From Laetmonice hystrix (Eukaryota), in the NCBI GenBank assembly GCA_965235115.1, contig OZ249436.1:33730001-33790000 (forward strand): a stretch of 60,000 nucleotides of DNA, in the 5' to 3' direction. Shown one piece after another: positions 2,108 through 49,935 of this stretch. The position numbers and the translations under genes are program-made. The first letter of the stretch is position 1, and the number at the start of each line of letters is the position of its first letter. The notes under the pieces are model-generated. The model was not told where the DNA came from, did no database searches, and saw nothing but the letters and a program-made list of their open reading frames with translations.

Positions 2108-2266
2108 TACCTAGGCTATTTACGGCAACAATATAAACCTAAGGTCGGTGGGTTTTGTTTGAACTTGCTAACCACGCACGCTCGTCAGACTACAGCTGGA
2201 GACGACCAAGTGATTGACCTAACTTGTAATTGTATTAGGCCTAACTAGGCGTACAAACAAACAATC

Positions 2267-3850
2267 ATGCCGTTCTCTCTAACTCGGAGCAGAGCTTGCT
2301 GTATTGTTTGCACAATTGCACTCGTGTGCTGTGTTTTCCCATGGATGTACATTTACAGAGAGCATGCCATATGTAAACCATACAGATGGGCAAGGAACGG
2401 TTTTGACCAGCGCAAAACGACATCACTCGTTGACGTGCCACCATCAAATGTTTTTGTAAGATATGCTGCTGAATTTCACCAATTTCATACATATCTGACA
2501 GATATTCTGCACTATAATTCACGACCTGTGGCCCCGTCAAACAGGCCTACACCACTACAATCTACCGTTGGTGCGGTTCCAATTCTGATGCAGTACATGA
2601 CCAACAATTCAACCCAGATGAAGAGAAGGTATGCTCAAGTTATCAAGGATACGTTACACAGAGCAAAAGAACAGAGGTCAATGTACCGCTACCACGTGAC
2701 TCTGCAGAGTGCACCAAGGGAAGACCATCCCAGGACAGCCATCATATCGGTGACGGAATGCCTGTGTGCCAACAGGTACTCTCCGAATAGGTCTAAAAAC
2801 ATACGCCAGAATGACTCTTCCTGCGTGCGAGAGAAGACGTCACGTGGTGGGTCGGCCATCCGGACGAAAATGAACGGTCCACACACACGTGACGTCTGCC
2901 ACGTTAGGGACCATCTCAATGGAACCTACCATCTGTCGTGTCCCATATACGAAGCTAACTCCACAGTTGAGGTTCAACTCATCCGACTTCTCTGGACGCA
3001 ATACACCACCTCGAATGTGACAAAAAGGATCGTCGGTACAATAACAGACCTTCGTCCCGTCACTGGGTTCGAACTGCGTGTTGCTGAAGACACTGTTTAC
3101 AATATGAAAATTGATTCATGGGTCAAAGATGTTGGGGGCCGCTGGCAGTGGTACAAGGGCGGTCGACGCCATCAAAGCTTAAACAAGGAACAACTTAAGC
3201 AATGTCTTCGGCAGATATCAAATCTTGTTGCAATCGGCGATTCTCATATGCGGTTTAATATGTATTATCTATATCTACAATTAGGGTTGTTGGACCTAGA
3301 CACGCCCAAAAACCTCACGTCACGGTACGTACGAGAAAATATTGCTTTTTATTGGTCCAGCACCACAAAAGAGTTGGTGGGGGAACTGGAGAAACTCTAC
3401 GAGAATATGCATTCCAGTAAACTCCATGCTTCAACTCGGACCTCCAAACCTGATGTTCTGATAATTAACTCATTCTTTCACGATATAAGGGCAAATCAAC
3501 TAGTACGTTATGTGGAAGGAATGGAGTTGATATTTAAAACGATTGCCAATCTGAAACACCAAAAAGGTGAACTGCTCAGAATTATATGGATAGGCACCGC
3601 ACCCATACCGGATCCCCGTAAATATGCCAATAGTGAATTTATAGCTGGGACCCATGGGTGGATCTACCCCCGAATGAGAAACCTGGGTGTTGAGGTGTTT
3701 GATGTCTTCAGGTTACTCCTTCCAGTTCAGAACCAAGGGATGTGCGATGAACACCACTATCTGTGCGTGACCCCGAAGAATAGACGCGTGACTGGTACCG
3801 AGGGTAAAATTGTTGCCGAGGAAATCTTTAAGATGATATGTCGGGTATGA
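2267..3850 (+). CDS. NXPE-like / PC-esterase (SGNH-fold) type II membrane protein, putative glycan O-acyltransferase or esterase, 527 aa, single coding exon
   Basis: Long ORF; N-terminal hydrophobic anchor (CCIVCTIALVCCVFPWMYI); DHLNGTY motif like the NXPE Ig-like domain; AIGDSHMR nucleophile block (GDS at 3236); NSFFHD block; C-terminal DEHH (DxxH, 3746-3757). Confidence 0.8.
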   Translation: MPFSLTRSRACCIVCTIALVCCVFPWMYIYREHAICKPYRWARNGFDQRKTTSLVDVPPSNVFVRYAAEFHQFHTYLTDILHYNSRPVAPSNRPTPLQSTVGAVPILMQYMTNNSTQMKRRYAQVIKDTLHRAKEQRSMYRYHVTLQSAPREDHPRTAIISVTECLCANRYSPNRSKNIRQNDSSCVREKTSRGGSAIRTKMNGPHTRDVCHVRDHLNGTYHLSCPIYEANSTVEVQLIRLLWTQYTTSNVTKRIVGTITDLRPVTGFELRVAEDTVYNMKIDSWVKDVGGRWQWYKGGRRHQSLNKEQLKQCLRQISNLVAIGDSHMRFNMYYLYLQLGLLDLDTPKNLTSRYVRENIAFYWSSTTKELVGELEKLYENMHSSKLHASTRTSKPDVLIINSFFHDIRANQLVRYVEGMELIFKTIANLKHQKGELLRIIWIGTAPIPDPRKYANSEFIAGTHGWIYPRMRNLGVEVFDVFRLLLPVQNQGMCDEHHYLCVTPKNRRVTGTEGKIVAEEIFKMICRV

Positions 3851-17289: not shown

Positions 17290-18894
17290 CCCACAATGCA
17301 CTCGGCCTTGACTTTGATGCAGACGCCGGGAATCGGCCTATTTCGTTTCCCTTTCAAATTTTTCCATACCCTTCGACTTAACCCTTCTTAAAACCTGCAC
17401 GGACTCTAAAACAGAACTACCTATACACAATATATAAAACCTATAATTAGGCAAACAAAGATAGTACATTGTTTGCCTTTTCTTTCCTTTTTTCTTTTTA
17501 TTATTTCTCTCTTCTTTCTGGATGTGTCTGACTGGGTAACTTATAATGACAACGATATTTAAATATATCTGAGATACGTAGATTTAAAGTCAGCTTCAGA
17601 CGCCAAGCTGTGCCAAGCATACCTAATGATTGGCCAGCAAGAAGGGTTTATAGTTGATGGACTGTTAACCTAAAGCTGTCATCCTGCCTACGACCCCCAT
17701 ACTATAACCTTTACACCGCTGGTGCATGACCCATATTCTCTGAAACTCTGCTCTATTTATCGGTGGCATTCACGGAGATGTAAACTTCAGACCCAAGTGG
17801 CACGGTATATATTTTGCTATATAAAGGGATGTGTACCGAGGGCAGGGTCAGCCCCCCCCCCCTTGGAAGGGTGGTCATGCTATACTGGGTACACCCACAG
17901 TGGATGACACCTTAAAAGGTCACCTCCCATTTAGCACGGTGTTGGCAACTGCCCTGACCGACCCAAAGTAATATTTCCGTGAACAATTTTTTTTTGTCGG
18001 ATGTGATCCGTATAAAAATCACGTGTGTACATAGGAGGCTGAGTATCAAAATTCAGTTTCAGCCGTAGAAATATTGGCCAGAAACGTAATAAAACGCCCG
18101 TTGCTTTCAATATGCTACAGTTGCCAAAGAGAATAATAAAGAATATGCACGGATTATCCGTTTTCTGGAGAAGACCAATGGTTTTAGTTTTTACAGGAGA
18201 AGACTACGCAAGGTCTTTACCTGGGGTATACGATTTGCGCGGCATCTCAGAATGTTTGGTTGCTCTCTGCAGCCAAGCACTAACGCATACATTGTTTGCA
18301 AACAAGCCTCGAAGCAGACGAACGTTGAAGCATTCAGGTAATGTTTTCCCCCATACTAAACCAACATCCGTTGGTATAGCGGTTCTCCCCAGGCAGAATT
18401 TAACCCCTAAATTTATACCACATTCTCTATTACATTCTCCATCCGGGGCCGAGCAAATGGCCCCGTCACAGTCAACTGAACGCCCTTGTAATTGTCAGGC
18501 CTCAACAAGGCTTGGACGTTCCCTTCGAACAAATCCAGGCACCCGTTATGTATACATGTCCAAAGGGCGCATTGGTAGGCCTTGCCTTTCTTGATATAAT
18601 GTTATATGATTATTGTGTGAAAATAAGCAAAACATGATTGCACACTTAATATTATGTATATAATAAAATTATACACATATAAGTTAGAAATTGTCAATCC
18701 CTTTGACTAAGCCTGCCATTGAGTACCGAAAGACCTGCCTCCTCTTTGGCCTATAGGCCCATGACACAAGACCCATGAATGATAAATATACCGCCTTTAG
18801 TCATACGTATAATGCACTCGTAACTGACATGCCTGCTGCCTACATGAGTTCCTTGGGGAACATAATCAACACCTTTTAATGCGATGACAATAAT

Positions 18895-18985
18895 CAGTGG
18901 AAGATCCAGGATTTTGATAATGGGGGGCACCAGGATTTTGATAAGATAAGGGGGCCCATCAGGATTTTGATAAGGGGGCCCACCT
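18895..18985. mobile_element. hAT-like MITE end with triplicated CAGGATTTTGATAA motif
   Basis: CAGTGGAAGATCCAGGATTTTGATAA start; same family as 3879-4179. Confidence 0.45.
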
Positions 18986-20319
18986 AAAAAAACCTTTTGC
19001 CTCGCTATGCTCGGCTTTAGATTTTGACTGTACTAAGGCATCTTTATCCAATTTAAGATAACAAAAGAAAGTTTAAATGATGCATGACATGCTACACGTT
19101 AGAAATGAGGTCCAGAATTTTATAGTTCTCTTGGAAAAAAATAGATTTTTTTTTCAAAATAATAATAATAATACTTTATTTCAAGAAGTAGATCTAACTC
19201 ATACATTTAGTCATTACTTTCTCTATCGAAAAACAAAATATGTCATTTTTACAATATATTACATGTAAATTGATCTAATGTCAAAAGCCATCAATTATAT
19301 ACCTGTACATGACTGTTTACCAATCTAATCTCGGCAGTTAATAATAATGTACACATCGATCGGCGTGTAATATGTGTAACTTGAACGACCGCGAACGTTT
19401 TGATAACGGTTTGGCTTCGAAGATAAATTCTTCTTTCCCCTCCTTGTCTTATATTGACTCAGGGTCTAATGATTCGGGAATTACGAAGGGGTCCTTTTCT
19501 TTGGATAGTTATAATTTCTCACTTCCACATTCAGTGGCTGGATAATATCCGTATGTATATATAAACTGATCAGTGCATTGAATTCATATTATCGAACCGG
19601 AATTTATAGAAGGTCACTGCCATATGGTACGGCTCCCAAGGTTGTTAACCCGTAAGGACGGATGTGCTCGAGGGTCGTGGACGATTGTAAATATAATGCT
19701 AAACTGTTGTAAGTTATCACTATAATGAACGTCATGTTGCGATAGTGCATGACCGATGATTCCAGGAAGATAGCACATTGTGGCATGAATGATAAGTCAC
19801 CGATAGAGCTACATTTTAAGTGGCTGAACAGACAGGAGACCTCTCGATTGATAAGGCTTATGGCTGCTGTTCCCCTGACTTCTGGGTGGTTCTGCGAAGT
19901 GTCGGCTGAGCAAATGGTCAAGTAGCGATGATTATCTCTTCTATCTTATTTACAGGCCCGGAATACAATACTGTCGCGAATAACCGACACTGTGGTAATG
20001 GTGACATTGATTATTTCCTTGCGTCCTTAAAGCAGAGCAGAAAAGAAACGGAAAAGTAATATAGGCCTACGCAGTCGTCAGAAACACTGACAATTTCATT
20101 TAGGAATGTCAGATTAAACTACATCAAGTTTTTCAACTGATTTGAAAGTTTGCGGTCAAAATAATTAATTATTAATACATTAAATTCTATTTCGATACCA
20201 TACGCCCGATTCATTTTGAACGAAGATGATAGATGTAGGGCAGCAAGATTATACACAGACAATTAAACTCGCCATGTCACGTCATTAAGCCTACTCGGCC
20301 GTTATATTATAGTCCTAAA

Positions 20320-23369: not shown

Positions 23370-23580
23370 TTCTCGGTAGCCGTCCGCATCCTGTCGTTAG
23401 CGAAGCGACTGGGCGGAAGTTCCCGTGACGTCAGTCATTCGTGGATGCCGCGAAATGTGCGCTTTGCATATCGCAGGGAAGACACGCGCGAACTGTAATG
23501 GCTACCTGTGATGGTAGTTGAAGTCTCCTCAGAGAAGTAGCATAGAACGATAGTTTCCAGGGAGCGCACCAAGGTAAGAG
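23370..23580 (+). promoter_or_regulatory. Putative promoter and first non-coding exon of the zinc-finger gene
   Basis: CpG-rich; ETS site CGGAAGT (23414) next to CRE TGACGTCA (23426); strong donor AAG|GTAAGA at 23573/4; acceptor GTTGCAG| at 25097 just upstream of the ORF. Confidence 0.45.
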
Positions 23581-24605
23581 TTTGCAAGCCAGTCCAGGAA
23601 TGGATCTTCTATTCGTAGTGAGATCTTTGGAAAGTGTCGATGAAGGAAAGTGGGGAAAACGGTGAGATTGTGACGGAGTGACAGCGCGGAACTTGGGCAC
23701 AACTTGAGTAAAGGTATTTAGGTCACATTTCTGGAATATAGGCCATGTGGATTGCGCGGTGACAAACACATGTCCACAGAGAGGACACCCAACTCGTGTC
23801 AGTTCTTCATTTTCCTTGGCCTAGAACGGTAGGTTTCTCTTGTTCCCTTGACGGCCACGGAACTTTTCGTGCTGGTGTGGAGAGTCGTGAACAAGGTGGC
23901 CATATTTTTAGGAGGTGACAGTTGAAGTGCGTGGCGGCCTCGGCCATGGTGACAGCGCGACCCGGGGCCGACATGCCGTGAAGGGCCGGGGCCGCCAGGA
24001 ATCGGGGCCCGCCACTGCACACGGACCGGGCCGCAGTAGAGGTGCGGGAATCGGGTCGACCCGTTGCCCAGGCGCTGTCATCGAGTAGAGATATGTCACG
24101 GGACTAGCACTAACGCAGATTTTTTTCTAGCACGAAGCTGAAGTAACTACACAAGGTCACATCATACAGGTCTAAATCGGTTCAGAGTTCGACTGCTAGA
24201 CTAGGGCAATACAAGGCCATAGTGGCCTGGGTCAGTTAGTGTCCAACGCTCACTTTACTCTTCAGTGATCGGCTGAGTGCAGGGCCACGCACACATGTAG
24301 GCAAGCCTGTCCACCCAGCAGCAAAGTGGTAGCACATCACTTGACGAGATCAGTACAGTATTAGGTTGAGTATAGTACTGATTGTAGATGTATTGTAGTA
24401 CCGTACTATATGTGTAGATTCTTTTGAAACAAATTATTATTTAACGAGAAGTAGGCCTATTGACTATTGTCAAAATTATTGATCTCAAGCCCAGAAAAAC
24501 TTTGCCAAAGCATGGTAGCCCAATGGTTTGGGGAGTTTGGTAGCCCACCAGAAATTTTGATTGTCCCACTCCCAGGCATCCGGGTTCCTGATTTTTCAAG
24601 GCCTG

Positions 24606-24712
24606 GGGTGTGTTTCTCATCTATCGTTATCCTGTCGTGCATTAAAATCCCCATTGAAAATGCATTGGAGTTAAGGATACGACAAGCTAACGACGTGATG
24701 AGAAATGCCCCC
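24606..24712. mobile_element. 107-bp Harbinger-type MITE (CWG target), copy 1
   Basis: TIR GGGTGTGTTTCTCATC / GATGAGAAATGCCCCC; CTG on both flanks; homologous to 50187-50293. Confidence 0.8.
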
Positions 24713-25225
24713 CTGGATCGTAGCTGACCAAAAAGTTTGGAGTCTAAATGTAATCTGCAGGCAAAGTTCTAAGTGTAGCATGAAATAAGCTAGGGCTAAC
24801 ATGGAAATGGATTAGGACAGTGCCTGGAAGGCTAGTGTCAGGGTATTCTACTTCTACATAGTACTGGTAGTGGGCCTTTTAATCCTACCACTGGTACCAG
24901 CTATCAAATATTTCATAATAGGACCATGAAATTTGGGAAGCATGATGACATAAAATTTGCAATTATGGTCAATAGGCCTAGGTATGAGTTAGTAAAAGTC
25001 TAGCTGTTACAGGGCAGATATTGTAAATTGTTTGAACTTTATCTTCTGGCACTGTTCTGCCAATGAACTCAAATGAATCCTGTCACTGTTGTTGCAGGCG
25101 CAGCCGCAAGCAGGCTACCCACATGACTGCAAGAAGGTCCCCCTCTTGACTGGGCTAGGGCAGCCAGTCTGACAGCAGTATCAGCACCACCCACCTGTTG
25201 GCAGCAGGTCCACGGGAACAGCAGG

Positions 25226-27109
25226 ATGAGGGACATGCAACGAGAGCGCCTCACCCACCTCCTGGCCAATGCCATTCTGGAGCTGTGGAAGAAGGAAACA
25301 GGCAGCCTGTCGTCTGTTATCATAGAAGGTACGATATGCATTACATCAGGCACAGGCAAGACAACAGTCCTGCAGGTGGCTGATAGGTTCAGTGGTAGCA
25401 TTCCCGAGGCTGAACAGGAGGAGGTCCAAAATGCCTTCTCTCCGCCAGAGTCGGGCCGGTTTCATCATCACAACCTTGGAATGATGCGGAGCCTAAGCAT
25501 GCCTCATTATAATGACTTGGGACCAAGAGTTGATTGCCACAGCCAGGCATCCATGGCAGCTTTTTTAGACAATTTGTCCCCAGCTTCGCTCGTGTCTCCA
25601 GGAACAGATCACTCGAGGTCAAGCCGAGAAAGCAGGTCTCCTTCGGCGGTAGTCCCTGGACGTGGCGACACAAGCGCCATGGATGTAAGCACGGGGAGTT
25701 TCAAGGATGACATTTTGTCTGAATCTGGGTCAGACTCAGTCTCTGAAGACAAGTCAGGGTCACCATCAGAAGGCACCACCGGGGGTATATGCCCTGGCAC
25801 TGGGTACTACACGTGTGCTACACCTGAACTTAATAATAACAATATTGAGAAGAAAAGCCGTCACGTGTCAGAGAGAGACAAATCCCCTGACAGTCCTCCA
25901 GAGCGAATGAAACGACGACTTTCCATCGACCATTCACCAGACTCTGAATATTCTAGTAAGAAACGCACAAGTTTGGAAGCCCAGCAATACCCTGTTGACG
26001 GAAGAGACTCTGTGTCACCCAAAGAGCAAGGGTCTGATGCTATGGACCTTACACGTAAAGACAATGATGATCTAGCTCTTTCACCACCTCAAAGTTACAC
26101 CGCACAAGTACGAGACGTTATTCGACAAAGGCTGCTAGCTGCTCAGATACGAGGGCACTCTTCCAGCACTGGTGATGAGGTTGGTTTGCCGACAGATCTG
26201 AGCAAAAGCGGCATTGACAATAGTAACAAAGCCATAAAAGCTCTGAAGAGTTTCCCGCATGGTGAGCGCGATGCCAGTGGGCATATTCCTGAATGCAGCA
26301 CAGTTGATCGTGATGCCCAGGAAGTGCAGCATAAAGAATATGACCTTCACGAGAAGGGCCAGAATTCCTTAGAGCAATCATCTAGGGATTCTGCTGACAA
26401 AAAGCGCGAGGCTTTGAGGGTAAACATACCTCACCAGATGCCCCCACACAGCAGACCCATGTTGTCGAGTCCCATCTCGCCCATAATGTCATCTGGTTCA
26501 GGCATGATGGGTATACATGCTCCTCTGACAACCATGCCTCGTCAGAACATGACGATGGGAAATGGACCCTTGCATGCTATTCTACGTAGGAAGCCATTCA
26601 TGACGCCACCATTACGTACAGGTGTGACAACATCTTCTCCAAGCAGTGCCCCACCTATATTCTCTCATCCCGGTTTCTCCCCTCTAGCCATACCCCAGCA
26701 ATCCCCCCGAGATGCATCCCCATCACCCACAGACCTCAGCATGGAAAACTCAAACGAAGACAAGGAGGTGGGGCCAAACGGAGAGCAAAGAGTCTACCGG
26801 TGTGAATTCTGTACAAAGACTTTCCTGTTCAAGAGTAAGTACCACGAGCATCTTCCAGTTCATACAAATGCACGGCCTTTCCAGTGTCATTTGTGTTCTC
26901 GTACCTACAAGTACAAGTACGACTTACGGGTACATCTAAGAACACACATGGGCATCCCCACCAAGTCAACTGTCTGTCCTTTCTGCAACACCAAGTTTGA
27001 CACCAACAAGATGCTTCGAGTACACATCAAGGATGCCCACAAAGACAAACAGAAGGTAACAGAAGATGACTGCAGCCAAGCTCCAGAAAGCCTTAGCCCA
27101 GCTGTGTGA
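25226..27109 (+). CDS. C2H2 zinc-finger transcription factor (3 C-terminal fingers, CtBP-binding motifs), 627 aa, single coding exon
   Basis: Three CxxC..HxxxH fingers at 26795-27040 with a TNARP linker; PTDLS twice (26189, 26726) and AMDLT (26039); Ser/Pro-rich disordered middle; in-frame stop upstream of the ATG. Confidence 0.95.
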   Translation: MRDMQRERLTHLLANAILELWKKETGSLSSVIIEGTICITSGTGKTTVLQVADRFSGSIPEAEQEEVQNAFSPPESGRFHHHNLGMMRSLSMPHYNDLGPRVDCHSQASMAAFLDNLSPASLVSPGTDHSRSSRESRSPSAVVPGRGDTSAMDVSTGSFKDDILSESGSDSVSEDKSGSPSEGTTGGICPGTGYYTCATPELNNNNIEKKSRHVSERDKSPDSPPERMKRRLSIDHSPDSEYSSKKRTSLEAQQYPVDGRDSVSPKEQGSDAMDLTRKDNDDLALSPPQSYTAQVRDVIRQRLLAAQIRGHSSSTGDEVGLPTDLSKSGIDNSNKAIKALKSFPHGERDASGHIPECSTVDRDAQEVQHKEYDLHEKGQNSLEQSSRDSADKKREALRVNIPHQMPPHSRPMLSSPISPIMSSGSGMMGIHAPLTTMPRQNMTMGNGPLHAILRRKPFMTPPLRTGVTTSSPSSAPPIFSHPGFSPLAIPQQSPRDASPSPTDLSMENSNEDKEVGPNGEQRVYRCEFCTKTFLFKSKYHEHLPVHTNARPFQCHLCSRTYKYKYDLRVHLRTHMGIPTKSTVCPFCNTKFDTNKMLRVHIKDAHKDKQKVTEDDCSQAPESLSPAV

Positions 27110-30100
27110 AATAATTTTAGTTCCTATCAGATGAAGTTTTGTAGAACAAAATCTTTGGTATTCACGCAAAAATTTTCAAATATGTTTATCTTACAGGGAA
27201 TCTAAACAAGTGTAAAGCATTCAAGATTGATTTAAGTCAGTTTACAAGGTGAAAATTGGAATTAGGGAATAGATCCTGCACATAGATTTTTAAGTGCGTT
27301 TGAGCATCGTGACACTTACTAAGTTAGGAACCCTTTGCATTTTTGTTGGAAAAATATCAAGCGGCTACAAGACAGTATTGAAGAATAACCTGCAATAGGT
27401 TTTCATGACTTTTCAGTCATGTGCCTGATTCTGTACCAGAAATTTACAGGGACCACCATGATAATAATATATAAAAGTGTGGAGTTTCATTCATAGTATT
27501 CTATTGGCAGCCCTGCGGTTGGACACACTGCAGGAATGTGTACCAACAGCCCAGTCATCCCCAGCATCTATCTACCTCAAGAACTTTTTTTTCTCATTGA
27601 TGTGTGTACTTTTTTTTTGTCTTCTCCAAATGGTTGTCTCCGTAAAGGTCTGGGCTACAACACAGAAATATCAAGGATAATATTCACAATATGTCATTGG
27701 GCAGCAGTTGTCAAAATGTCAGATGTATAACGAGGACAGAGCCAAGTCGGTGACAATTACGGTACATTTTTAATGGCCATGGATTTTTTTTTTGGGGGGG
27801 GGAGGGGGTGATGCTCCTGGGGCTTTATAATTACCGGTAATGATACGACAGAGAGCATCAATGGAGCAAGTTTGGGAGGGCTCTTTGCATAGTACTGCAT
27901 CTCCCAAAGATGAGGATACATAAGGTTAAAGAAAGCTCCCCTGGCTCCATAAGACAGTTGATGCAATGCCATGTTTATTAACAAAAGTTATAGTCCACAA
28001 CTTGAAAGTGCGTTTTTTTTAATCATCCATTTTGTCCATTTGCCGTAACTGATATGACCAAACTGATTTCATAAAATATATTTTGTGTCAAGCAACACCA
28101 CTCAAAGAGATGTTGAGCCTGCATCTCCAGCTTCCAATACCTCAGGGACAGTAGAACTTGTTGCTGAGAGGCAAATTTAATGAGCAGTTCTTGGCGACAT
28201 CGCAACAAGTGGGGAGGTGGCAACATTGGTCTTGCGTTATTGCAGCCAATTGCCATTGGAAGATGTACACCACAAGTTAAATAACCCTGATGTGGATTTG
28301 CATCAAATACCTATTGAGGATTCAATTCGCTGTCTGCATAATCGTTGCATAGAAGAAGAAAAAGAACTACATGTATTTACGTTTTGTGATTTGCATTTCT
28401 GATTGTGACATACAATCCTCTACCCAAAGTGGTGCTAGTATCTATGCAAGAATGATGATACTATGGGTTCCAGAATCATCCCATCAGACATATAACGTAT
28501 ATAGTAGCCTGCATGTAGTTAACAAGGCTTATATATACATGTATACATAGTACATTTCTAGGGGAGTAAGCCAAGAAAGGGTACCGGACCAATCTGATGC
28601 AGTGTTAGGTCACGACAATGGGTAAATAAGTTGGCCAGTGGGATTCATGAAGAATGACGTCGGCCAACTACTGCAGACAATGCAATGGTTAGATGAGAAA
28701 AGGACCTTGTAGCCCCTTTTCGTCGTCACCAATTATGGAGTGTTTGAAGACATCCACAACAGGTACAGGACTGATAGAAAGCCTGTGATATATACGTGTA
28801 CCTACAGCCATGTTTTGGGTAGGCATTGCCGGAGTCATGCGGACTCCGAACTGCTGTACAGGAACTGAGTGATTTCAAAGGAAGGTGCTGGCACTGTCCC
28901 CACCCTGCATCTGAGTGGAACTCTCAAACACATAACGTTTTTTTAATGGGCAAGAAGATGCAGAGTCCATATATGCTGGAGGCAGTAAAGGGTAGGATTG
29001 CACTATGCAATCTGAAATGAAGCAAGGTCCACAGGTTGTACAGGCCTCACAAGTTCACACCAATGTTAAATGTATCTTTGTGATATCAAAGAACGTTGTT
29101 GAAGTTGCACTGAGTGAAATGGTGCAGAAGGTCACACAAGTTAGATTTATAATGTAGATGTTTTAATAGGGGTGCATTTATATGCTTGAAAAGAAATGTT
29201 TGTATATGTGTATATAAATATGTGAATGTTATCCGTGAAGCTGCATCTCTCCTGTGTTGCCATGGCTACATACTATCCAACATCCCTGTGATTGGATCTG
29301 AGGGGGCGGCCCTCACAGAGCCTAAGATCCTTATTCAATGTAGTTTAAAGATATATCCTTCATTGAACATTAAGTAGAATTTTGTTAAAAACGAAATTAG
29401 AGTAGTAGAATTGCATGAGAAACGTTGCTCATGAAATACTGGTCTGATGAACTGGTGCAAAAAATACCGCTGTCAACTCTACAAGCTCAAATTGCAAAAG
29501 TACTGTGGTAAAAGTTTGTTCTCTCAGCATCTCATAATCTTTCGCAGCAGGATTATTTCCAAAGCGTATAAGGAATCCAATGCCTAGTAATTCCTTTTTA
29601 TAACTGGAAAATCATGTAGTATTTCTCAATTTGGTAATGCATTCCAAGCATAATGAAAGCCAGACATGATTACAAGTGAGCTTCATGTCATTCCGCCATT
29701 GTCAAAAATAGCTCAAGAAAGTGCAAGTCCAAAGACGACATAGCATTCCATTATTGTGTTTTGATTATTCTTTTGTGTAATGAGTGAGAGATGGACAAAT
29801 AATGCAGAAAATTGCCATTCTTTGATTACAATAGATAATTAGATAGTTTTTCATGGTCACAAAAGTAACTCTTTATTGAAAAATTTTGTTCGGTATAGCC
29901 TGGCGCCGTGGCTGTGACATGTTTAGAGGGAAGATGGTGAAGTCCAAGAGTTTTACTGATGTTAACATTACAGATAGTACTTTTCCGGAATTTCTCAGAA
30001 GGATAATTAATGTCACACACAATTGGTAGAGATTGCGTTGAGCATTGAACAGTTTTACTATACATATATTTAAAAAATGGATAATGTACCAAGGAGTAAC

Positions 30101-44517: not shown

Positions 44518-47500
44518 GTACGTTATCGCAATGGCATATATTTAAAGTTGTCTGGAAGGACTCTTGGTTGCAGGTGAACACAAATCAAATGTGGTCGATA
44601 ATAGGGTATTTTTCCAAGATATGCACACACTGACTGACACAGACACACTCGGTCACCCAACTATCTGGCTGGGGCCGTGATTGGGGGTTAGGTGTTAGTG
44701 TGGAAACAAATAAAACTTTCTGAATTGACCATGCTGAACCATTTCCCCCTTAACCCCACCCCCACCCCCTAATTAGCAAATTCTTCCCCCAAACACACAC
44801 CCCCCCCCCGGTGCAAAATTGTGGATCCGCCCATGTCACGCATGTGTACGTGTCGTGTGTATGCACAGTCACCCTCTCCCTTAAGCCAGTATCTCACTGG
44901 GCTACAACTGTTGGCATTTGCGAGGGAGTTTCCAAAGTGTCTCGAAATGTGTTCGCGGCAGTTCCCAATTTCCTTGCGTCAGTCGCAGGGCCTCTCTCAC
45001 TCGTGTCGCTGGAATTTTGAACATGTTCAAAAAATTTGTGCGACAAATTTTCACTCAAAATAGTTGCAGAGTCGTCATAGGTGTCTCGAACCCTTCAATT
45101 AAATCAATTGGGAATAAACTGCAAACAATTTGCAAGACACTTTGTCACTAAATTGTGACAAAAAACATTGTGCAACCATATTTGCACGAATGTCCCGCGA
45201 AAGTCATGTGCTTGGCGTACGAATGTCGCAATTTATTCATAGTGCGACATGCGCAAATGTGTCGTAAGTACCAATTCAGTGTGATTCCAAGTGAAAATTG
45301 TCGCTAATTTGTGTATTTTCTCATAATTTTGTATTTCCAACTAGTCGTGAGCTGTCGCAGCCCAGTAAGATACTAGCTTTAGCTTAGGCTTAGCTCAGTT
45401 TCTAAATGGTGTCTTGCAGAACACTAATGGTTGTCGAGCACCTGTGAACCAGCGACTCCTGGCCACTCTGTGATGAGATTTCCTTTCGCAACTTTCTGGC
45501 CTTTGTTTTTGCACTAAATTTCTTCCATTGAGCATGAAATCGATTTTTATAGATAGTAAAGGTATTTATCTTTCTCTGATTATGATTATACTATAGCTTA
45601 TATAAGGACAAATATAAATTGGACGAACAGACAGAGTTTCGCTAAGTAAAGTATCGTCCAACCACTTTAAGTAACATCTTTAAATATTCGTAGCAAATTT
45701 TAGAGACATTAGTAGTCTAAAACATGAGTTTGAGGTGATGATGCGCAATAGGACCTAGATAGAACTCTGTCCGGATTGCAGTCACTGCTATGTTTGAACT
45801 CTAGAGTCAGAGTCCATATATGGAGGTAAGGAGTAAGACTTGTTGTAGAGTTTGGTGTTAGCTGTATATTAAAATTCATAAGTTACGACCTATTCAGTGT
45901 AGGAAGTGTTGTAGACTCAAAAATATACAGGGTGCCCCCCCCCCCCCCCAAAAAAAAGCTTCTTAGGTTTCCTGGTTTGGCGTGGACATTTTTGGGGGGA
46001 CACTCTGTATAATATCCTAATCTTACCTCATCCCGGGAGTTCAAGATTGTCAATGTCATAATTTGTAGTAAAACAGATTGTGCTATGGAACCATAAACTA
46101 AGGCCTAGGTGTGTGCCCCAGGCCTCAAGAGTCAATGTAAATCGGAATACATCGAGCTGCAGCAACCGGATCCAGGGTTTTGGGAAAGGCTTGTGTACCC
46201 CCTCCCCAGGATCCATGCATGTCTTACCTAGTGGCTTTCTCAGTGAATTTTAAGAAGTTCTCAAAAGATTGTTTTTAAAAAAAGTACTCCCCTATGTTCC
46301 CATAAAGTTCAATTCCTTTATTGAACTACCTGTCAGAGCAATTTACGGACCTCTCCGCATCCGCATCCCCATCCCCATCCCCCTACCCCTACCCCTACTC
46401 TTTTTGTGCCCGACAGTAGTGTGTATGAGCCTATTGGTAGATCTACCGACAAAAGATGTACCGTAGATGAGCCTGTACTGGTCAGGTGCCAGGAGATGCT
46501 ATCGTGGCGCCATCTGAAGTTTGGTATGGTAATACTATATACAATGTACAATGATCTTGCGGCTGATGGCTTCGAGTGCATTGCAACGCATACATGTATT
46601 TAGGGACGTTGCCTACTGCTTAACCCTTTCTTTTAGTTCAGAGCAGTTAAGTTATGTTGTGTAAATTGCCGACATTCAAGGTGTGAGCCCTTGAGAATGC
46701 CTAATACTGATCAGTACTGTAGCTAGTAGGTCGTTTGCTTTTTTTTGAGAGAGAGGAAGTCTTATTGTAAAATCGTTTCCCAGTTTGCCTTAGACGGTTT
46801 ATATAGTGATAAATTCTTTAAGTGATAAGTTGTATTTTGTCGCTTGGGGCAGAATTCCCCCTGAATGTGCCGATGTGGCTGCATAAAAATATTAGGAAAG
46901 AATAGTTTCTTACGAAGCTGTCTTGAGTATTTCACTATATATCTAAATTGATTCGGCGTTATAGGGTGGTTGGCATAATTTGCATAAGCAAAAGATCTGA
47001 AATAAAAACAGCCCCAAAAAAACTAACCCATTACACTGCATTCTTACCGGTAGTGCTGTCTAGTGGTCGGTCGATTAAAGGAAAAAAACAGGTCGCACAA
47101 TTTTGTCTTTTGAGGTTTTGTGAGAAGACAAACCATTTCTCGTGTCGACCAGAGACCTGTTTGTACGGTAGGGCTATTAAAAAGGCGGTCCAAGGCGGAT
47201 ATACATGTGTTCCGGCTCGACTTATAAACAGCTGTTGAGCATGCCCAACTCCCCTTGATCCCACCCCCTTGACCCCTCCTTCCTACCAAACTCCGTGAGC
47301 AGTGTCGAGAAAATGACCAGGGTGACCCCTTTACGTAGTTTTCCCCTTATATGTTGCAGTTACTGGCAACGCCCGAGTACAAACGTAGTAAGCGAGTGTC
47401 AGTCTACCTCAGCATGACAGACGAGGTCCAGACGTTGTCTGTTGTCAAGGATATCCTGGGCACTAATCGTGTCTGCTATATTCCCAGGTCAAGTATATTT

Positions 47501-49935
47501 TATTTAAAAAACAACATAGTTCCCACTCTTGTGTGGCCGCTCTCTATATCCATGGATAATGAAGTCACCTCACCATGCCCCGCAGGAAAGTTTTTTTATT
47601 ACCAACATACATTATACAGTGGGTTTTTTGGGGTGTATGTTTGTGGGGTTTTTTTTATCAGAAAGGTATATGGTTTTGTAAGCTCGCGTTACTTACAGCA
47701 AGTTTCGACTTAAACAAATGCAGTGGTCAAGTTTGTTCCCCAATCTCTTCGTAAACTTTCATTATTTCCAATTTTAATAGTGTTTCCATTTTCAAAGCAT
47801 CAGGACCGGTAGGTAGGGCTCTATTTCAATAAAACCAGTTTGTATTATCTTACGATTTCGATCGTTGTTTCTTCATACAATATCAAAATGTACCCTCCAA
47901 AAAAAACAGAGTTTCCGATACGTGCCTCTCACTGGTAGTCTCAGTATGAAACAATTTTGAAGGAAAGGTTTACTAGGTTTTTAAACGTTTACCTCGGACA
48001 TTTAGAGTTAATATAAATATTCACTGTGGTTTGCTTAGAAGGTGGCATTTACCGTTTTAGAGAGTAGGACTGTCGACGTCAGAATGCCTGATCTTGTGCT
48101 AACCTCAAGGGACCTACAACGCTGTCTCTCGTATGTCTGGCACTGCAGGAACAATTGGCACTGCACTGACTTAACCTTTGACACCCCGTTAGCCTTTGTT
48201 CAAATTGTTGGAGAGCAGAACCTATTAGGCCTACTCTCCAAGCCTGCAGTCCAAAGTCTATTAACCTGACACAAATAAACAAATAAGCAGTGAGTCAGGT
48301 TTGTAATTAATGAAGTATTGAAAGCAGAAAGTAACGAAGACGTTTCATTTGGCACGATTTATTATACGTTGCCTGATAGTAGATCGTTAAGGTTATGTGA
48401 AGGTCATAGTTCATTTTCCCCCCTAGTAGGTCGTGTCTGTAGCTCAGAGGAGCGTAAAATTGGTTAACACGTAGTTAAACACGGTCACAGTACGTTTTCA
48501 CTCACGTCATTTTATTATATTATAAACTTTGGCCATGTATGATGCAGTAGATTGTAGAAATGAATGGCCCGAAGATGTGAAATCATATTACACATGTATC
48601 ATAATTCCTTTTAACAAATGGATTAGATTATCAGTTTATCTACAATAGAACCGTTACCACAAACGGGGGAGACGGGGCGGGAGAACGTGGGATAAAAGAT
48701 GGGGAGAGTGACTGTGTTGGCAATTACAGTCATCTTCATGTCGAAAAGCTGGGGGGAAATTGACAGAGACAAACAGAGAGAGAGACGGACAGAGAGAGGG
48801 AGAGACACAGACACAGAGAGACAAACCGTGACAGAGAGAGACAGAGACAGAGACAGAGACACGGACAGACATAGAGAGACACACAGAGAGACACACAGAC
48901 AGAGAGACACACAGACACAGAGAGACAGACAGGGAGAGACGGACAGAGAGAGACAGAGACGGACAAAGACAGACCGAGAGAGACAGAGAGAGAGACAGAG
49001 ACGGACAAAGACAGACCGAGAGAGACCGAGAGATGTGAAGTTACAACATGGTGCGTGTGGGTGTTCAGGTACGTCGGGCCAAAGATGGACATGGTGAGGC
49101 TGCACTCGCTGTCGGACTATGAAAGTTTGCCGGAGACAACCTGGCACATTAAACAACCCCCGGTGGACGAGGAAAGGGAAGAGGCCCTTCAGGCAGGTAC
49201 GTTCTCGTCCCGCCGCCAACTCCAAAAATAGTGGCACCCTTCCCTATAACCACTGCCCCCCCCCCCCCACACACACACACACCTACTCGGTGGGGGTGAC
49301 TCGTTGGGGGTAGGGGGGGGGGGCGTTGTCCGGTGGAGCGACCAACTCCATATTTTTGTTATAAGAGTAGTGAGGAGCAGAAATCAAAAGGTCGAACCCA
49401 TGTACACACTTGTCAGATTTCCAGGAGTGCGACCATTTTATTTTGTTTTACGGAATAGAACTTGTGGTTTTCCGTAGAGCTGTGGCCGAATCAAATGGAC
49501 AATTAGGGTAGAGATGGGACGTGGTGGCTTCTAATGTACAACAGACTTTAACATCTTCAATTTCGTTCAATTTTCTCAATTTAAGATCTGACATACCGGT
49601 AATAGCCGAGGTATGAGTAAATTATAAAATCCTCCAGTGTCCACCTGTATTGAGACCCGGTACTCCTAAATTATACCTACACTTGTTTCGTTGAAGGGGG
49701 TCTCGACCTGATCGTGATGCCTGGTCTTGGATTCACTCGGTCGGGAGACAGGATCGGTCGGGGAAAGGGTTACTACGACACCTACCTTACGAAGTGTAAA
49801 GCAGTGATGGGTCGGATCCCTACTACAATTGCTCTGGCTTACTTCCAGCAGGTCTGTGATAGCATTCCAACCTCTCAACTTGACGTTCAGATTGACAAAG
49901 TTTTATTTGAGGAGCCAAGTAGCGATTCTACTTGA
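44410..49935 (+). CDS. MTHFS: 5-formyltetrahydrofolate cyclo-ligase (methenyltetrahydrofolate synthetase), join(44410..44517,47360..47487,49069..49196,49697..49935), 200 aa
   Basis: GT-AG introns in phases 0/2/1 give a 603-nt ORF; motifs KSVLRKE, VSVYLSMTDEV, CYIPR, WHIKQP, DLIVMPGLGF, RIGRGKGYYD. Confidence 0.95.
44884..45378. mobile_element. PIF/Harbinger MITE in MTHFS intron 1
   Basis: TIR AGCYAGTATCTYACTGGGCT; TTA TSD at 44881-44883 and 45379-45381. Confidence 0.85.
45926..46009. mobile_element. Tiny Tc1/mariner-type MITE
   Basis: TA-CAGGGTGCCCCC ... GGGGGACACTCTG-TA. Confidence 0.55.
47360..47487 (+). CDS. MTHFS: MTHFS coding exon 2
   Basis: TTGCAG acceptor; LLATPEYKRSKRVSVYLSMTDEVQT...CYIP; GTCAAG donor. 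Confidence 0.92.
48762..49032. repeat. Compound (GA/GACA) microsatellite
   Basis: Seen directly; explains the spurious ORFs at 48623-49237. Confidence 0.95.
49069..49196 (+). CDS. MTHFS: MTHFS coding exon 3
   Basis: TTCAG acceptor; YVGPKMDMVRLHSLSDYESLPETTWHIKQP...ALQA; GTACGT donor. Confidence 0.92.
49697..49935 (+). CDS. MTHFS: MTHFS coding exon 4
   Basis: GLDLIVMPGLGFTRSGDRIGRGKGYYD... to the TGA stop. Confidence 0.95.

Follow-up and report, generated by a model that had tools for sequence, protein, structure and literature searches.

An unnamed N-terminal domain, probably a dimerisation module, on zinc-finger proteins of annelids and molluscs

Results

The 60,000-nucleotide stretch of Laetmonice hystrix DNA analysed here (the window; contig OZ249436.1 of assembly GCA_965235115.1, positions 33,730,001 to 33,790,000, forward strand) contains a gene for a 627-residue C2H2 zinc-finger protein, of which residues 5-56 (25238..25393, + strand) make up an unnamed helix-strand-strand domain. 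This segment is conserved at the N-terminus of a family of zinc-finger proteins from annelids and molluscs and, judged from structural models read together with family conservation, likely works as a dimerisation module. The original prediction, made from the letters of the window, had proposed an N-terminal alpha/beta module at 25226..25396, which corresponds to codons 1-57 of the open reading frame 25226..27109 (+ strand), and the string that it quoted covers residues 7-55. A module of this kind is indeed present: AlphaFold2, given 35 paralogous copies, predicts a helix at residues 2-25 and strands at 31-40 and 46-55 with a mean pLDDT of 87, and hydrophobic columns recur across 150 aligned family rows.

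In these rows, helix positions 9, 12, 13, 17, 20 and 21 are occupied by large hydrophobic residues in 98-100% of cases, and positions 6, 7, 8, 10, 15, 22, 23 and 24 in 0-1%. The amphipathic and alternating pattern that had first drawn attention to the segment is sharp at the level of the family, whereas the hydrophobic periodicity of the window sequence alone shows no excess over shuffled sequences (p 0.20, 0.11 and 0.55). Covariation (321 sequences, effective number 136, 1,326 pairs) supports the hairpin register, with the pairs 34-50 and 36-48 at ranks 1 and 3. The segment had also been said to differ sharply from a disordered region behind it. In composition this holds, since the residues I/L/V/F/W/M/C account for 35% of positions 6-56 versus 20% of positions 57-522, and the best run of 51 residues within 57-522 reaches 25% versus 35% in the domain (I/L/V/F/W/C); however, the 466-residue middle is not uniformly featureless, as it includes a conserved block at residues 283-305. 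The window copy is itself divergent, with W at position 21 where the family has C and 16-33% identity to 34 paralogues.

No Pfam family matches any of the 35 domain copies at E 0.001 (11 families are matched weakly, the best of them, an unrelated one, at E 0.0043), and Pfam finds only the C2H2 fingers on the window protein. The domain lacks cysteine pairs and has the wrong size and make for BTB, so that the claimed dissimilarity to KRAB, SCAN, BTB and ZAD stands, as does the expectation of an ordered segment outside described Pfam families. Foldseek and other fold searches, like the sequence search of the PDB, returned no significant match, in a setting where a single-chain model of 58 residues has little search power; for so small a model, a missing fold match would be no proof of a new fold. 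The literature searched contained neither a description of this domain nor such a named domain for annelids and molluscs, and there is a small though appreciable chance that it already bears a name, for example in InterPro-type resources or in a 2024 review of C2H2 domain architectures. A P-loop at residues 41-46 was considered and rejected: SGTGKT lacks the first G of the Walker A pattern (GxxxxGK[ST]), which is I39 here, varies among relatives and forms the hairpin turn.

The homodimer envisaged in the original prediction passed its controls. A model of two copies of residues 1-58 scored 0.67 (0.68, 0.67 and 0.67 in the individual runs) versus 0.02 for the best of three controls; the runs agreed in 100% of contacts, had a pLDDT of at least 83 and folded without an alignment. 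In a calibration on microbial structures, 21 of 30 solved pairs but none of 23 solved single chains attained the mark; among eukaryotes, 17 of 29 pairs did so (animals 7/16; 1/7 without an older solved relative), again with none of 30 single chains. Further support for the model comes from the contacts predicted with most confidence (32-40', 33-39', 34-38', 36-36', 17-37', 17-39', 21-39' and 13-20'), which use columns that are hydrophobic in 98-100% of the 150 family rows. Moreover, neither sequence nor fold searches of the PDB brought up a similar structure, which makes a pass due to the memory of the model less likely. AlphaFold2 also folds a natural protein with two domain copies in tandem, with a pLDDT of 81-96 over residues 1-120 and a pTM of 0.58, equal to its ordered fraction (120/206); this pTM would be consistent with two copies fixed against each other in one compact unit.

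Several points weigh against this reading. The dimer score is the model's own confidence, read against small calibration counts, and up to about 1 in 10 single chains may pass. Covariation misses the inter-chain pairs (32-40 at rank 245, 33-39 at rank 420, 34-38 at rank 950 and 31-41 at rank 1,263). The dimer was the sole oligomeric state modelled, and larger oligomers are still compatible with it. Finally, on the sheet face directed away from the helices, the window copy has T at 36 and 46, and the hydrophobic patch of this open face is therefore weaker in its subfamily.

Two alternatives draw on these points. Larger units such as tetramers or hexamers could arise if dimers stacked via the open face or lengthened the sheet edge to edge, in the way of Tramtrack-type BTB domains, for which PMC11426971 describes hexamers of three dimers. 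Positions 36, 46 and 48 are indeed 85-100% hydrophobic in the family, and the paralogues share a lola-like gene layout. However, positions 34, 40 and 50 of the same face are 99-100% non-hydrophobic and, given also the two threonines of the window copy, we regard such assemblies as unlikely. The second alternative, slightly less probable again, is a KRAB-like effector that completes the sheet of an unrelated co-regulator and does not pair with itself. The silence of covariation on self contacts would suit it, and a foreign partner could cover the conserved hydrophobic columns, which seem too many for a helix and a hairpin alone. Against this, the homodimer model exceeds its controls by 0.65 with a symmetric, low-error interface, the natural tandem is predicted to fold as one unit, and the candidate co-repressor motifs sit elsewhere in the protein. 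Self-pairing of the domain thus remains our preferred interpretation; of the two roles first suggested, dimerisation is backed by the controlled model, and that of an effector is weaker.

The Foldseek comparison gave no clear fold match, and it bears on a third possibility, that the domain descends remotely from the core of the MADS box and that its helix pair touches DNA. The predicted dimer, with antiparallel helices over a four-stranded sheet of two hairpins, resembles the SRF/MEF2 core in layout, and an SRF structure stands at rank 21 among the Foldseek hits. That row (1hbx_B) nevertheless has an E of 1.8, a TM score of 0.33 and an rmsd of 7.8, in a search with the same low-powered 58-residue model. 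SRF-TF matches none of the 35 copies, and a profile comparison with three MADS pieces of this genome gave a probability of 0.3%, with an equally high score in 15 of 60 column shuffles, on a thin profile of three sequences. The domain also begins at the first methionine, which leaves no room for a basic extension. We hold MADS descent to be very improbable and retain an independent dimerisation domain as the better explanation. Separately, besides SRF and MEF2, the genome contains near-identical divergent MADS-like frames at L063 (contig C3 near 11.19 Mb; SRF-TF E 1.6e-6) and L064 (contig C8 near 4.15 Mb); frames so alike on separate contigs may belong to a mobile element.

The domain extends far beyond orthologues of the window gene. 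Three single-protein searches of the Laetmonice genome, which give a lower bound, located at least 38 domain places, 24 of them on the contig of the window, and the family sequence pattern that the original prediction had put forward is seen in the paralogues read from this genome. In 34 of the 35 copies cut out, a methionine lies within six residues of the domain start. A profile of these copies retrieved 2,118 clusters at E 0.001 (1,335 at 1e-10) from 1.84 billion representatives at 50% identity, and a profile of nine divergent copies added named oyster and mussel proteins (Saccostrea, Ostrea, Crassostrea/Magallana and Mytilus), in which the matching N-terminal domain is followed by 14 fingers. 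Among 405 fetched proteins, which were chosen for the domain, are partly redundant and include many single exons, the domain starts within the first 15 residues in 342 and within the first 100 in all; a finger follows it in 92 and precedes it in none, and ten carry two domain copies. Most ends in the family carry one to three fingers or other DNA-binding folds.

An organism is named in 13 of the 264 listed rows, always an annelid or a bivalve. These names confirm the proposed membership of molluscs and annelids; a restriction to spiralians, also proposed, is not established by so few named rows, and gastropods, cephalopods, brachiopods and flatworms are absent from the 13. We conclude that the domain is real, widespread in annelids, present in bivalves and nameless in the sources searched. 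In a rough tree (71 domains, 57 columns, with long branches meeting), the window type falls in a separate clade (99/95), represented in this genome by one copy; the large clade of canonical domains (99/97) is distinct from it, as is a third clade (98/98) in which annelid and bivalve rows are mixed. Because one clade mixes rows of both phyla apart from the others, the family may have split before these phyla did, as far as a short alignment can indicate. Several dozen canonical copies, almost identical to one another, are similar to the entries named as Lamellibrachia and Ridgeia, most rows being unnamed, which suggests that the family expanded recently in tubeworms. Contig C8, which holds none of the 38 domain places, has C2H2 frames with several fingers densely clustered at about 24.4-28.8 Mb.

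The complete coding sequence of the window gene (25226..27109, + strand; 627 residues plus stop) occupies a single exon. Contigs of run X4, whose kind is not on record and which covers exon-like stretches only, join this exon to an upstream non-coding exon (23500..23573, + strand; start approximate, 3' end at a GT donor) across a GT..AG intron (23574..25098, + strand), and the joint 23573 to 25099 has 73 letters on its shorter side. The coding exon opens with a 5' untranslated portion (25099..25225, + strand) containing an in-frame TGA at 25124-25126. Because this stop precedes the ATG and the upstream exon is spliced to 25099, the ATG at 25226 is the true start and the segment is the true N-terminus. 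The three C2H2 fingers occupy residues 524-606 (26795..27043, + strand); they show 80-99% identity per 20-residue block across aligned relatives, whereas the next best match in the genome reaches 38%, and this near invariance suggests a fixed target. No AATAAA or ATTAAA is present between 27101 and 28500, and just beyond the 3' end of the gene run X4 has the beginning of a contig of 1,748 bases at depth 36.6 (27819-28500 and further).

A search with residues 1-62 retrieved 24 orthologue-like proteins of 356-749 residues with 63-98% identity; the names attached to them or to their clusters are Paralvinella, Lamellibrachia, Ridgeia and Dimorphilus. In the window protein and 23 of these 24 relatives, three blocks are conserved: the N-terminal segment, the 23 residues 283-305 (26072..26140, + strand) and the fingers. 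The internal block, present in 24 of 24 aligned proteins, has no PDB match and is likely a partner-binding helix; it and the finger triplet are each single-copy in the genome. All three blocks are retained in the Dimorphilus protein (P0411/P0012), although it is only 356 residues long.

The linker contains three short motifs of CtBP type; PMC11187106 describes PxDLS and ALDLS as motifs that bind CtBP. AMDLT (residues 272-276; 26039..26053, + strand) belongs to the class described there and would be a candidate CtBP site; by a loose pattern, 20 of 24 aligned proteins have a similar motif ahead of block 283-305. PTDLS occurs at residues 322-326 (26189..26203, + strand), where it is kept in the closest relative only, and at residues 501-505 (26726..26740, + strand), where close relatives keep it. 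Two PxDLS motifs in the linker were reached by 4 of 5,000 shuffles; yet no more than 5 of the 24 aligned proteins have the strict motif, and the count for the conserved variant comes from the loose pattern. Repression through these motifs is a possibility that we rate a little short of even. The window gene represents a slowly evolving single-copy subfamily with CtBP-type motifs and, on this basis, may act as a dimeric repressor.

The paralogues differ in their surroundings. Within the 10 kb that follow paralogous domains (20 such stretches were read), we observed runs of short frames with one DNA-binding module each, among them five single-finger frames in L043, five in L053 and three in L054. 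A homeodomain frame (L047:1655-2383, E 4e-17) and a Myb/SANT-like frame (L044:3029-3337, E 2e-7) also follow paralogous domain exons and are candidates for heads of another kind than zinc fingers. A further frame of about 230 residues, unnamed and without a Pfam match in the one copy scanned, recurs behind canonical paralogues at five loci (L049:7310; L050:7145; L051:1815 and 4886; L056:2195; and two minus-strand frames in L059). At the one locus tested, no splice joint linked the shared exon with an end exon. Run X4 contains a GT..AG joint that leads from within one finger frame to the next in L053:5624-6810 (contig C1 near 29.18 Mb; one contig, depth 13.6), which a strict model of splicing to one end at a time would not predict. 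At L050:3140-4318, less than 3 kb from a domain exon, lies a frame with DUF3504 and QRICH1, which we take to be of Crypton type and which is either a transposon insertion or a captured exon.

Elsewhere in the window, contig depth in run X1 indicates high-copy repeats at 24082-24715, inside the intron, and at 18376-19643. A 533-residue single frame at 2249-3850 (+ strand) has a weak NXPE4 C-terminal match (E 4e-4), and a frame at 47339-47713 (+ strand) presumably resembles an exon of 5-formyltetrahydrofolate cyclo-ligase.

Discussion

The predicted architecture suggests how the domain might work. The helix-hairpin unit has hydrophobic columns on both faces and would be too small to bury them by itself. 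In the model, strand 1 would pair antiparallel with strand 1' about residue 36 to give a four-stranded sheet, with the two helices lying antiparallel across one face and I17 and W21 resting on I37 and I39 of the partner. The dimer would join two three-finger heads, presumably the DNA-binding parts, on long flexible arms, and its output would plausibly be repression via the CtBP-type motifs of the linker. The open sheet face (36, 46, 48) might offer an extra binding surface, on which a second dimer, the helix of a cofactor or the 283-305 block could dock, and pairing between paralogues can be envisaged as well.

Named N-terminal domains explain the expanded zinc-finger families of vertebrates (KRAB, SCAN), insects (ZAD, TTK-BTB) and fish (FiNZ). 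A domain of 52 residues that is carried by thousands of proteins and has a specific interface in the dimer model would fill the corresponding gap for annelids and molluscs, and its profile would help to annotate many 'hypothetical' proteins. New here are the separate single-copy subfamily, the named mollusc members, the natural tandem forms and the controlled dimer model. If the paralogues pair with one another, their lola-like arrays of end exons would yield a large set of two-headed DNA-binding factors, and annelids and molluscs would have converged with arthropods on an unrelated scaffold. It is tempting to regard the domain as the equivalent, in annelids and molluscs, of the Tramtrack BTB, with a (helix-strand-strand)2 fold that is so far undescribed; its roughly forty paralogues would pair within and between themselves and carry alternative DNA-binding ends in a combinatorial dimer code independent of arthropods, with the window gene as an old, fixed, single-copy member that recruits CtBP; we advance this tentatively and doubt that it will hold in full.

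By its predicted mode of action, the domain appears akin to the dimerisation domains associated with zinc fingers, although it belongs to none of those tested. It lies N-terminal to C2H2 fingers and occurs in an expanded paralogue family, a position and an expansion that match, by analogy, domains of the ZAD, SCAN and BTB type. The likeness to the MADS-box core (SRF, MEF2) concerns the predicted (helix-strand-strand)2 layout; sequence and profile similarity are lacking, and DNA binding would come from separate zinc fingers. SCAN and DUF3669 are helical, whereas the interface predicted here is a shared beta-sheet, and neither these two nor KRAB gave a Pfam match on the 35 copies or the window protein. 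SCAN and DUF3669 are vertebrate N-terminal modules for homo- and heterodimerisation of C2H2 proteins, and the insect ZAD (zf-AD) is a small N-terminal homodimerising domain of an expanded and clustered C2H2 family, according to PMC8084297. ZAD is alike in being small and N-terminal and in homodimerisation, predicted here, but has two zinc-binding cysteine pairs; four cysteines occur in none of our 150 rows (median 1), and the window copy has one. KRAB in tetrapods and FiNZ in fish are likewise short, lineage-restricted N-terminal domains of expanded zinc-finger families, according to PMC10547256; in contrast to the present domain, theirs are repressor domains on long finger arrays, the comparison with FiNZ being one of descriptions.

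The closest parallel in organization is the Tramtrack group of Drosophila BTB proteins (lola, mod(mdg4), broad, ttk), which combine an N-terminal self-association domain, here predicted, with C-terminal C2H2 or HTH heads and are likewise an expanded family, lineage-restricted in their case. According to PMC11426971, 17 of 20 lola isoforms have different C2H2 ends and mod(mdg4) has a similar layout; behind the paralogues of the window gene, likewise, lie series of end exons that are candidates for alternative DNA-binding heads. The window gene itself differs in having one coding exon and no such array or cassette. The scaffolds also differ, a BTB domain comprising 100-120 residues with five helices and three strands (PMC11426971) and ours about 52 residues with one helix and two strands, and the BTB Pfam family matches none of the 35 copies at E up to 1. 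The FxLRWN motif carried by TTK types is absent, by eye, from the 35 alignment rows, and PMC11426971 reports no ttk motif in Annelida or Mollusca.
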